In this document: piece by piece, positions 23,698 to 34,983 of the stretch | How the letters are laid out: each line of letters starts with the position of its first letter | Position numbering within the stretch: position 1 is the first letter of the stretch | Source: an uncultured delta proteobacterium | Lineage (GTDB): Bacteria > Desulfobacterota > RBG-13-43-22 | Direction: 5' to 3' | Length of the DNA stretch: 64,000 nucleotides | NCBI GenBank assembly: GCA_963711835.1 | Contig: CAVQFQ010000021.1 | Coordinates: 294,632-358,631, forward strand | The notes under the pieces: generated by a model | Seen by the model: only the letters and a program-made list of their open reading frames with translations | What the model was told of the DNA's origin: nothing | The model's database searches: none | Program-made: the position numbers and the translations under genes

Positions 23698-24141
23698 GTG
23701 AAGGACCATCAGGTCAGGCTGAATGGAATAGGTCCCCCCCTCTGGATAGGGATCAAGAAGGGACTGAGGTCTTCCCTGGGGATTATTAAGGTGATGTTTC
23801 CCGTGACCCTGGCGGTAACGGTCTTAAAATGTACCCCGGTTTTAGGCTGGCTGGCGGAAGGGTTTCGTCCCTTCATGGGCCTCATGGGTTTGAGGGGAGA
23901 AACTGCCCTGCCCTATATCTTGGGATCGGTCCTTAACCTCTATGTTGCTATAGGGGCCATGATCCCGTTAGGCCTGACCTCCAGGGAGATCACCATCCTG
24001 GCCACGGTGCTCCTCATATCCCATAGCCTGTTGGTGGAAACCGCCGTAATCAAAGGCATCGGGGCCCCTTGGTTTGGGCTGCTTCTCATGAGAGTGGGGG
24101 CCGGTTTTTTTATGGGCCTGGTGCTTTCCTGGGTTTTATGA
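23698..24141 (+). CDS. Nucleoside-recognition (Gate) domain membrane protein
   Basis: PFMGLMGLRGE..NLYVAIG..ISHSLLVET. Confidence 0.75.
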   Translation: MKDHQVRLNGIGPPLWIGIKKGLRSSLGIIKVMFPVTLAVTVLKCTPVLGWLAEGFRPFMGLMGLRGETALPYILGSVLNLYVAIGAMIPLGLTSREITILATVLLISHSLLVETAVIKGIGAPWFGLLLMRVGAGFFMGLVLSWVL

Positions 24142-24593
24142 CCGCTTCCCTGATTCAGGTCGAATTCCTCAAGGCCCTCTATGCCTTTCTCAAGGTCTCG
24201 GCCATGATCCTCCTGATCGTAACCCCGATCATCACGATCATGGAACTCCTGCGCTCCTTCCATCTCCTGGACCCCTTAGTGACCCCGCTCCACCGTCTTT
24301 TCGCCTGGATGCGGATCCGGAAAGAATCGGTGGCGGCCTTGTTTGTCGGCATTATTTTCGGCATCGCTTACGGCGGCGGGGTGCTCCTGGAAGAAAAACG
24401 ATCCGGGGCTTTAAACCGGCGCGATGCCTTGCTGGTCGGGGTCTTCCTGAGTCTGAGCCATGCCTTGATCGAAGATACCTTTCTTTTCGTGGCCGTCGGG
24501 GCCGACCTCTTGGTGGTTCTTTTTTCCAGGATCCTCTTAACCATTCTGGTACTCCTGTCCCTGCGGCTCTTTCTGCCGCCCGAAAGGAAATGA
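24138..24593 (+). CDS. Nucleoside-recognition (Gate) domain membrane protein
   Basis: ATGA overlap with the previous gene; GIIFGIAYGGGVL..SHALIEDTFLF. Confidence 0.75.
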   Translation: MTASLIQVEFLKALYAFLKVSAMILLIVTPIITIMELLRSFHLLDPLVTPLHRLFAWMRIRKESVAALFVGIIFGIAYGGGVLLEEKRSGALNRRDALLVGVFLSLSHALIEDTFLFVAVGADLLVVLFSRILLTILVLLSLRLFLPPERK

Positions 24594-32768: not shown

Positions 32769-33023
32769 TTATGGCCTTGAAAGACCGGGAACATCCCAAT
32801 CAATATCCCCTGTCCTTACCGCGATGCCATAGGCCCGGCTGGCATGAATCAGGAAAACAGTATCGTTTTCCCTTTTGTTAAAGACCCAGTCGCGTTCCTT
32901 TAGCTGCCGATAAACCCCTTCCCGAATGCGTAACAATTTACCCGGAGTCAAGGCCTTTCTAAGAGCCTTTTCAGATCTTCGCCCCGCGGCTCCATAAGGG
33001 ATATTCACGGGTTGGTGAACCAT
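32769..33023 (-). CDS. Hypothetical protein
   Basis: 84-aa ORF with a strong AGGAGG ribosome-binding site. Confidence 0.5.
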   Translation of the reverse strand: MVHQPVNIPYGAAGRRSEKALRKALTPGKLLRIREGVYRQLKERDWVFNKRENDTVFLIHASRAYGIAVRTGDIDWDVPGLSRP

Positions 33024-33348
33024 CGGGCACCCCTCCTTTTCGCTTGGCTCAAAGGTGAGAATCGTAAGAACTGTTACGCAAATTTAATGCCATCAAGGAT
33101 TCGGACCCTGAACAGGTTGTTTTTGTTGGCTTATTGGATTTCAGGCTTACTTGGGGATCTGTTGAAAATGGAAGAAAATTTCCCTTTGTTCCTATTAAAA
33201 TTCCCTGTCATCCGTTATTTCTGAACAAAGGGAGTTTTCGACCCTGTTCACCGGACCGGAAGCGGTGTCAATCTCGATTTCCCACCTACCCTACCCAATA
33301 TCGAAAGATGTTTTTGATCGTGACGATCAGACCTCACTATTATAGAGT

Positions 33349-33400
33349 TGGCTCCCCGGGAGGGACTTGAATCCCGCTGCAAGCGGGATTAACAGCCACC
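33349..33400 (-). pseudogene. 3' partial tRNA-Asn copy with palindrome substitution
   Basis: GGTGGCTGTTAA-TCCCGCTTGCAGCGGGA-TTCAAGTCCCTCCCGGGGAGCCA. Confidence 0.9.
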
Positions 33401-33664
33401 TGGTTCAATAAGGATTCCTATATCTTTTAAGTATCGGCTAATCCCTCGTTTCTTGATGGTCCGTTCTAAAAGCATTGTCTCACTCCGCGTTTGACATTCT
33501 TTCTCCCAAATTAATCGCCACGGTCCTTTAAATCGCTTGGTGGTCTTCGTGTCATGGCAGGCAGGATCATTATGCTCTTTTATTCGAAGAAAGAGGTTAT
33601 TGGTCTGCCCGCAATAATACCGACCAGTCGTTTCGCTTCTAAGAATGTAAACACAAAAGGCCAA
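33389..33664 (-). CDS. Stand-alone GIY-YIG nuclease (91 aa)
   Basis: VYILRS..RYYCGQTNNL..RIKEHN..GPWRLI..LERTIK; catalytic Tyr/Arg/Glu pattern retained. Confidence 0.92.
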   Translation of the reverse strand: MAFCVYILRSETTGRYYCGQTNNLFLRIKEHNDPACHDTKTTKRFKGPWRLIWEKECQTRSETMLLERTIKKRGISRYLKDIGILIEPGGC

Positions 33665-33679
33665 AATTAAAACCCCAAT

Positions 33680-33713
33680 AAAAAAAGCCCATTCTCAAAA
33701 ATGGGCCTTTTTT
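33680..33713 (-). terminator. Rho-independent terminator after tRNA-Asn
   Basis: AGGCCCATT-TTTGAG-AATGGGCTT followed by a T tract; A/T tracts on both sides. Confidence 0.85.
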
Positions 33714-33719
33714 AAAATT

Positions 33720-33794
33720 TGGCTCCCCGGGAGGGACTCGAACCCCCGACCAAGTGGTTAACAGCCACCCGCTCTACCACTGAGCTACCGAGGA
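33720..33794 (-). tRNA. tRNA-Asn (GTT)
   Basis: TCCTCGGTAGCTCAGTGGTAGAGCGGGTGGCT-GTT-AACCACTTGGTCGGGGGTTCGAGTCCCTCCCGGGGAGCCA; 75-nt cloverleaf. Confidence 0.97.
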
Positions 33795-33841
33795 ATATCA
33801 AGCTGGTTACTTTTTATTATTTTACACTTAATTACTTGTTA

Positions 33842-33906
33842 AGGGACTCGAATCCCGCTGCAAGCGGGATTAACAGCCACCCGCTCTACCACTGAGCTAC
33901 CGAGGA
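33842..33906 (-). pseudogene. 5' partial tRNA-Asn copy with palindrome substitution
   Basis: TCCTCGGTAGCTCAGTGGTAGAGCGGGTGGCTGTTAA-TCCCGCTTGCAGCGGGA-TTCGAGTCCCT; lacks the 3' acceptor strand. Confidence 0.9.
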
Positions 33907-33989
33907 ATAACTTTCTTTAAAAGATGAAAGTTCAAAATGAGAAAGGCAAAATTAAGTTGTTCTGATATATAGCTCAACAACCTATTCCA

Positions 33990-34983
33990 AATCAAAGGTT
34001 GTTCCTCCTTGACTTCCTCTTTGGGTCCCTCTTTGCTTTCGGCTTCCGCCGTCATTCCTTCCAGTTTCAGCAGCCGTTCATATTCGGCATCCACCCGCTT
34101 TTGGATGGTCTGAATCAGGTCCGGGGTCAGGTGGCTGAAACGCCGCTGTTGTTTCAGGTATTCTTCCACCGGTTTGGGTTTGGTATTTTTCCGGACCAGA
34201 TATTTTCCCTCCATAACTTCGTACAATGGAAAAATATTGGTCTCCACCACCAGTCGGCTGACCTCAATGGCCAGATCCGTTCCATGCCGCCAGCCCGTCG
34301 GGCAGGGGGAATAAACATGGAGATAGGCCGGACCTTTAATCAGGGCCGCTTTCTTGGCCTTGTTCATCAGATCCAGGTAGTAGGCCGGGGAAGCGGTGGC
34401 CACATAAGGGATATTGTGGGCGGCTGCGATCAAAGGGAGATTTTTTTTCCAGGTGGTCTGCCCGGCGGTTATCTTCCCCGCTGGAGACGTGGTGGTCATA
34501 GCACCGAAAGGCGTCGAACTGGATCGCTGAATCCCGGTATTCATATAGGCTTCATTATCCAGACAGACATAAACAAAGTCATGGCCCCGTTCCAGTGCAC
34601 CGGAAAGAGACTGGAGGCCGATATCAGCGGTTCCGCCGTCTCCGGCAAAGGCCACCACCGTAATCTTTTTCTCGGGGATCCTTCCCTTGGCCATCAGGGT
34701 CTTGAGTCCTTCTTCCACCCCGGAGGCAACGGCAGCCGCATTTTCAAAGGCCACGTGAATCCAGGGTACCGCCCAGGCTGTTTGGGGATAGGGAGAGGAG
34801 ATGATTTCCATACAGCCGGTGGCACTGACGACTACCATCGGGGATCCAATGGCCTTGGCCACCATACGCAGGGCCAGCACTTCACCGCATCCCTGGCAGG
34901 CCCGATGTCCGAAAACCAAAGGGTTCTTCTTTGGGCAGGGTCTTGGGAGTAAATTTCTTAAAAACGTTTCAAGTCGTCAGCAA
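33990..34983 (-). CDS. porB: 2-oxoacid:ferredoxin oxidoreductase beta subunit; ends approximate because of indels
   Basis: GHRACQGCG, ATGCMEI, FENAAA, GDGGTADIG..DNEAYMNTG, SPCPTGW. Confidence 0.93.

Follow-up and report, generated by a model that had tools for sequence, protein, structure and literature searches.

A small GIY-YIG gene behind tRNA-Asn and a hairpin that replaces host DNA in an uncultured Desulfobacterota bacterium

The multiplication of short palindromic repeats in bacterial genomes is still poorly explained. A locus in an uncultured delta proteobacterium (Desulfobacterota, RBG-13-43-22; contig CAVQFQ010000021.1, positions 294,632 to 358,631) raises this question in a compact form: a gene for a predicted small GIY-YIG nuclease lies behind a tRNA-Asn gene, and both are bracketed by broken tRNA copies that carry the same hairpin. 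Which unit is mobile here, if any, and how did the hairpin enter the tRNA copies? The stretch analysed, referred to as the window, is 64,000 nucleotides long. An earlier note on this DNA had proposed a minimal selfish nuclease element with attL/attR-like ends. Its parts and coordinates on the minus strand proved exact:

33906-33842, minus strand: copy A, tRNA-Asn nt 1-37, the 17-nt hairpin core (replacing nt 38-52) and nt 53-63
33853-33869, minus strand: hairpin core in copy A, 17 nt; with host AA/TT a 21-nt stem-loop at 33851-33871
33841-33795, minus strand: spacer between copy A and the intact tRNA, 47 nt, AT-rich, strain-variable
33794-33720, minus strand: intact tRNA-Asn(GTT) (ARAGORN; Rfam 68 bits)
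33678-33715 (stem 33706-33687), minus strand: terminator-like stem-loop between tRNA and nuclease gene, T-runs on both sides; the terminator scan listed the stem on the plus strand only
33664-33389, minus strand: GIY-YIG ORF, 91 aa, single domain, TTG start, TAA stop (PF01541, E 3.7e-16)
33400-33349, minus strand: copy C, tRNA nt 26-37, the hairpin core and nt 53-75 with CCA
33372-33388, minus strand: hairpin core in copy C, identical to the core in copy A
33349-33719, minus strand: 371-bp unit (terminator, gene, copy C), bounded by a repeat of the tRNA 3' end

In both broken copies the same 15 tRNA bases are swapped for one 17-base core, as had been claimed, and folding gives this core a 9-pair stem on either strand. 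The TAA stop of the nuclease gene lies inside copy C, in its tRNA-derived arm. The 40-bp direct repeat that had been described (one mismatch, period 481, repeat family D3) links copies A and C; a second repeat of 23-24 bp with a period of 371, absent from the earlier note, connects the tRNA 3' end with copy C (family D1). The tRNA-Asn(GTT) of the locus is the sole tRNA-Asn among 48 tRNA calls in an assembly that is 89% complete. Excision of the 481 bp would remove it; the viable unit measures 371 bp. Rfam placed only the tRNA above threshold at the locus, the promoter scan found no promoter-like site on the coding strand of the nuclease gene, and no donor of the spacer was detected in the whole assembly, in which the best other match is 20 nt. 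No recombinase-like gene was found in the unit, whose sole ORF is the GIY-YIG gene, or among the four neighbours scanned (a TPP enzyme, YtfJ and two without a family), in agreement with the absence of an integrase or transposase noted before. The upstream porB-like TPP-enzyme ORF (33897-34919, minus strand) lacks the stop that its relatives have about 95 bases earlier, runs into copy A and terminates at a tRNA-derived TAG.

An assembly artefact as the source of the triplicated tRNA was ruled out by contigs from other runs that cover the parts. Contig X7/17, which may originate from the source strain, matches 33693-33894 with 0 differences, X4/27 matches 33758-33899 with 1 difference, X6/16 matches 33777-33909 with 9 differences, all within the spacer, and X8/19 matches 33371-33667 with 9 differences; the whole unit is not spanned by any single contig of these runs. 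In contig X8/20 (142 nt) the hairpin immediately precedes the 5' part of the tRNA, at a depth of 29.5 vs 4.6 for the gene. This suggests that a close strain carries tandem A-spacer units, provided that both X8 contigs belong to one organism, and the single copy A of the window could therefore be a collapsed array. In the RNA run X6 both the gene and copy A are covered by contigs, which carry no expression or strand information. Joints of a 481-bp circle were not seen in the contigs of eight runs; contigs drop rare forms, so this is not evidence of absence. Elsewhere in the same genome (G000), two near-identical tRNA-Lys(CTT) genes are separated by 2.5 kb, and a similar small gene end precedes each of them (C22:21628-21703 and 24094-24169). 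Two near-identical tRNA-Pro loci with similar flanks are located on two contigs (C5:99159-99235 and C24:4628-4704) and possibly reflect a strain mixture (contamination 6.4%); two other ARAGORN calls of tRNA-Pro(GGG) look spurious.

The window protein matches PF01541 over residues 3-73 and possesses no other domain. The search returned 212 homologues, and Tyr6, Tyr17, Arg27, His31 and Glu67 are invariant in the 63 that were aligned. Among seven family orthologues pS is 0.55-1.03 vs a pN of 0.13-0.33, and 10 of 12 strain differences in the gene are synonymous, which indicates that it is under purifying selection. In the tree, from which SsnA itself is absent and for which the tool gave a long-branch warning, the protein clusters with tRNA-linked proteins (support 99/98), outside the 5-row clade (100/98) that contains the two NTS-flanked genes of the same genome; it is 34% identical to the product of one of these. 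These two Ssn-type genes, L001 (C17:662982-663200) and L003 (C17:344814-345035), are themselves bracketed by inverted NTS-like repeats with a similar stem. NCBIfam has no family for the window protein, the PDB sequence search gave only weak matches, to two UPF0213 proteins and Slx1 (E 0.011-0.4), and the Atlas search returned GIY-YIG clusters alone.

The window layout is not a one-off, it is the common form of a clade of ~90-residue GIY-YIG genes behind tRNA-Asn. Eighty metagenome loci reduced to 68 distinct ones, 47 of them with enough flank; a nearby intact tRNA, nearly always Asn, is present in 35 of the 47 and the hairpin in 43. Where an intact tRNA-Asn and enough flank allowed classification (36 loci), 15 show copy A, tRNA, gene and copy C as in the window, 14 are without A, 5 without a detected C and 2 without both. 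The expectation that homologues would be flanked by tRNA copies and palindromes was thus borne out. Copy A is often tandem (L076, L080, L082, L096, L180, L182), and so is the gene unit in some loci (L090, L129, L139, L186). In 15 loci without an intact tRNA upstream, inspection by eye placed a tRNA 3' end before the gene clearly in 11 and in degenerate form in 2. At the tRNA-Asn 3' end, other inserts were observed in L009 (G012:C205), L038 (G015:C515), L045, L069 and L093; they appear to have separated the nuclease unit from the intact tRNA, and a piece of the tRNA 3' end is what remains in front of the gene. Another small GIY-YIG type, unrelated to this one and accompanied by longer palindromes of its own, occurs behind tRNA-Asn in L018, L020, L022, L025, L026, L027 and L067, sometimes stacked with the clade of the window. 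Distant homologues in Bacteroidota adjoin tRNA-Pro, and one of them (L053) lies between a 5' copy and the intact gene. Among 17 loci of the own family, 5 are empty, 3 hold another GIY-YIG type alone, 3 hold this gene or a stump of it without A, 2 are window-like and 4 have copy A without this gene at the site. Loss of the 371-bp unit leaves an intact tRNA and restores the empty site of relatives, and both empty and tandem forms are seen.

The hairpin is spread over the genome. TCCCGC-loop-GCGGGA is present in 90 copies, 77 of them between a purine and a pyrimidine, vs 3-5 expected from an order-4 Markov model. Only 6 of the 77 lie in long ORFs, though these make up 76% of the genome, and 64 of the 77 have the asymmetric flanks G...T or the mirror A...C. 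Most hairpins lie in other repeat families, and filled and empty copies of the same sites can therefore be compared. For 54 of the 77 an unedited paralogue was available. With exact anchors, the commonest empty form begins with C and finishes with G in 44 of the 54 (10/16 junction classes; chance ~0.04 per site), and the rule is broken by the other 10 (6/16 classes); a looser first pass had given 11/24 classes. In the rule-obeying classes 5-43 host bases are replaced. The tRNA-Asn copies at 90 loci contain 151 hairpins, of which 63 were excluded as one flank was unmappable; among the remaining 88, 86 follow a purine before the initial C and a pyrimidine after the final G (14/16 junction classes), and these cases are non-independent, with few sites reused (nt 11-15, 25-34, 39-46, 38/39-52/53). 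Hence, the hairpin is not inserted: it substitutes for host DNA, and the replaced stretch as a rule has an initial C preceded by a purine and a final G followed by a pyrimidine. The same kind of edit is present in one of three 5S rRNA copies. These three copies lie behind one rRNA operon (G000:C17:264780-273340) at intervals of ~5.0 and 3.4 kb; protein genes separate them, the same trailer follows each, and the middle one is the edited copy; the region looks like gene blocks inserted with duplication of the 5S gene. GNA tri-loops, considered as a possible sign of a DNA mini-hairpin, make up 11 of 43 distinct tri-loops, only mildly more than the ~5 expected, and were set aside as an argument. 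By eye, the loci of distant nucleases (L051, L052, L054, L185, L187) have altered hairpin stems of the TCCAGC, TCCTGC and TCCGCC types. This hints that enzyme and hairpin vary together, and hairpin variants appear to change with the nuclease subclade.

Does the gene go together with the hairpin? It is present in 14 of 301 genomes of the phylum and in 7 of 21 of the family. At least 10 hairpins were counted in 12 of the 14 gene-positive genomes vs 24 of the 287 others, and outside the own family in 7 of 9 vs 20 of 282; Fisher p-values overstate both differences, because kin are not independent. The two gene-positive genomes with a single hairpin hold partial matches (G072, model positions 1-61; G099, positions 22-86 plus a stop). 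The 24 hairpin-rich genomes without a detected gene carry up to 84 copies, and since many assemblies break at the locus, gene-negative genomes may be missed genes. Within the own family the medians of 13.8 vs 3.5 hairpins per Mb do not differ significantly (p=0.056). The hairpin does not closely bracket any of the 12 Y1-transposase matches in the genome, and 2 of the 12 have one within ~1.5 kb.

The ends of the two tRNA copies give further indications. Copy A ends at tRNA nt 43-56 if its last hairpin occupies the D-arm site and at nt 63-64 if it occupies the anticodon site. This tracking is partly forced by the spacing of usable sites, and therefore a uniform junction was simulated as the null: copy A terminates 9-15 nt past the last hairpin in 26 of 35 loci vs a null mean of 13.9. 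The left arm of copy C is weakly peaked (28/47 vs 21.4 expected, p=0.03 by simulation). The loops of A and C are identical in 5 of 26 pairs (permutation mean 0.74, p=0.0004) and differ in 21. The earlier note had considered the palindrome a recognition end or a repair scar. A functional part for it is supported by the loop sharing and by the ends of copy A; a merely local scar is not, since the hairpin is a genome-wide replacement element. The 40-bp repeat is the part in which the two fragments overlap (a 12-nt arm, the hairpin and an 11-nt arm), and as a by-product of their origin it would resemble a target duplication more than an att core. The tRNA variant in copy A of L096 and L106 differs from that of the intact gene and copy C, and in L134 copies A and C have a common variant that is missing from the intact gene. 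In L181 (G164) the tRNA-Asn at the native promoter is full-length and edited; its hairpin is imperfect, and an intact copy lies next to it. Here a duplicate of promoter, leader and tRNA lies downstream, behind the nuclease gene, joined at a broken hairpin. We infer that these four loci are probably survivors of an overwritten working tRNA.

The locus seems to work most like Ssn with NTS. SsnA of Neisseria meningitidis binds single-stranded DNA at a hairpin and cleaves it a few bases upstream, its activity is abolished in the mutants Y6A, Y17A and E64A, and the Discussion of the same paper suspects, no more, that Ssn nucleases spread their hairpins (Chenal et al. 2025, PMC11893778). The window protein shares the single GIY-YIG domain of ~90-95 aa (91 aa here, in keeping with the ~95 aa of Ssn, cd10448), and its Y6, Y17 and E67 are equivalent to SsnA Y6, Y17 and E64. 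As described in the sections of PMC11893778 covered, a GC-rich hairpin with a CCCGC/GCGGG stem, repeated genome-wide outside genes, adjoins the gene in both cases, and a link to mobile elements has been proposed. In contrast, the window protein belongs to a clade separate from that of the two NTS-flanked genes in its genome. The published degenerate SRM motif has 0 matches in 32901-34400 and occurs in 1 of 68 clade loci, compared with 3 at L001, 2 at L003 and 48 genome-wide. Moreover, the window gene is tied to tRNA-Asn and its hairpin replaces host DNA by a junction rule, whereas the word 'tRNA' is absent from the main text of PMC11893778 and such a rule was not met with in the sections covered.

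A second likeness, by analogy, is to REP/BIME elements with IS200/IS605-related transposases, short extragenic GC-rich palindromes in dozens of copies whose spread is thought to be due to one small cognate enzyme acting on single-stranded hairpins (in part from PMC11893778, otherwise from general knowledge). Here the candidate enzyme is of the GIY-YIG and not the Y1 type, in line with the unbracketed Y1 matches, and the hairpin, whose flanks are not fixed, overwrites host DNA, tRNA and 5S copies included. In the parts of the two SegB reports covered (PMC2330249, PMC13096335), the nearest tRNA-linked GIY-YIG is SegB of T4-like phages, also encoded among tRNA genes, which spreads itself with tRNA genes and can drive tandem amplification of a tRNA segment. 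Like Seg-type homing genes, the window gene lies beside a tRNA gene and is present or absent between relatives. However, SegB cuts double-stranded DNA at a 27-bp site with a T-loop motif, and no hairpin partner is described for it in those parts, whereas a hairpin accompanies the window gene; in addition, the window protein is a bare 91-aa domain, its locus is chromosomal and the donor keeps an intact tRNA-Asn. No viral contig matched the edited-tRNA pattern (one pattern searched). Integrase-driven islands at tRNA 3' ends regenerate an intact tRNA and leave a displaced 3' fragment downstream of the insert. The locus differs from these: it lacks an integrase, its fragment carries the hairpin edit, a 5' fragment often occurs too and the unit measures only 371 bp. 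The covered part of Dunin-Horkawicz (2006, PMC1564403) mentions stand-alone Slx1-like domains and gives no tRNA-gene link. A published description of such a system was not found in a search limited to the openly accessible literature. Apparently, it is an undescribed variant of the hairpin-linked small GIY-YIG nucleases.

What could the nuclease do? We lean slightly towards a hairpin-guided single-strand nickase, with host repair copying the hairpin to new sites and moving the gene into empty tRNA-Asn loci. The putative nuclease would bind the hairpin in single-stranded DNA and nick nearby. Nicks between a purine and a following C on both strands would remove 5-43 bases, and the gap would be filled from a hairpin template. 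The 371-bp unit would enter or leave by recombination through the tRNA 3' arm, with the tRNA staying whole. When the hairpin overwrites the working tRNA, the survivors would be cells that gain a second intact copy: a break ~12 bases past the hairpin would be joined to incoming or sister DNA bearing leader and tRNA, yielding copy A plus spacer, with the 40-bp repeat as a by-product. This mechanism requires two cut positions, one flush with the hairpin and one ~12 nt off. Counting against it are the terminator-like stem between tRNA and gene, the lack of a promoter-like site on the coding strand, the missing spacer donor in the assembly, the 24 hairpin-rich genomes in which the gene was not detected, the hairpins that break the junction rule, the 21 A/C pairs with different loops and the two NTS-flanked Ssn-type genes of the same genome. 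It is tempting to go further, although we hold this to be doubtful, and to regard the 91-residue GIY-YIG as the engine of a minimal 'overwrite' element that would excise 5-43-base stretches bounded by two purine|C steps on opposite strands and have a fixed 16-19-base hairpin written there instead, anywhere in non-coding DNA, with tRNA-Asn as a permanent refuge that is rebuilt when overwritten.

Three other explanations have to be weighed against the hairpin-guided nickase. The one closest to the earlier note views copies A and C as attL/attR-like ends: spacer, working tRNA and nuclease would form a 481-bp element able to excise as a circle, and it would be kept because excision costs the cell its tRNA. 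The 40-bp repeat is real, the five A/C pairs with identical loops are in its favour, and L181 provides the one full-length edited tRNA-Asn found. Nevertheless, we regard it as very improbable. The empty family sites (5/17 loci) contain an intact tRNA, while a 481-bp excision would have yielded an edited one; copies A and C occur separately in relatives, with A lacking the gene and the gene lacking A both seen; and the neighbours scanned hold no recombinase-like gene. A full-length edited tRNA was found in 0 of 153 loci scanned and, by the weak test of a single strict pattern limited to the D-arm site, in 0 of 301 genomes, and the copy in L181 has an intact one beside it. The gene can also exit harmlessly via the 371-bp repeat, so addiction does not hold it. 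The earlier proposal thus keeps a selfish-looking cassette whose homologues lie behind tRNA-Asn with hairpins, and loses its att-type 481-bp unit and the retention by cost of excision.

The gene might also be a passenger: another enzyme, or replication slippage, would spread the hairpin, the 3' end of tRNA-Asn would be a general landing site and dead tRNA pieces nearby would collect hairpins. Such a view is consistent with the other GIY-YIG types (L018, L020, L022, L025-L027) and the islands (L009, L038) at the same site in relatives, with the 24 hairpin-rich genomes without a detected gene, with the lack of a close clade member in four family genomes checked (G005, G008, G010, G020), and with the NTS-flanked Ssn-type genes that have a related stem in the own genome. 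It is at odds with the hairpin beside the gene in 43 of 47 clade loci, the co-occurrence across the phylum, the hairpin variants that by eye appear to shift with the subclade and the Y1 genes without bracketing hairpins, and we consider it unlikely. A little less probable still is a domesticated Ssn-like nuclease, kept by the host to cut incoming hairpin-bearing single-stranded DNA and to tune gene transfer, with the tRNA scars as side effects. SsnA acts in this way in Neisseria (PMC11893778, in the parts covered), and the purifying selection on the gene would fit, but the same selection is expected of a homing gene. The patchy presence in family and phylum, the frequent truncation, tandem copies and fixed residence at one tRNA, and the harmful edits of tRNA and 5S genes all argue against a host function.

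Of the new results, the replacement rule offers the most useful handle. Because the same sites are available both filled and empty, the product and its junction rule are explicit and point to one 91-residue candidate enzyme, so that oligonucleotides suffice to test how such repeats multiply. The overwrite reading, if true, would describe a mobile DNA that works by replacement and differs from insertion sequences, REP/RAYT pairs and homing endonucleases. If the link between gene and hairpin holds, these proteins would represent a sister clade of single-strand nucleases that are guided by a hairpin but differ in specificity, and possibly a tool, and the link would account for the many broken copies of tRNA and 5S genes in these genomes.
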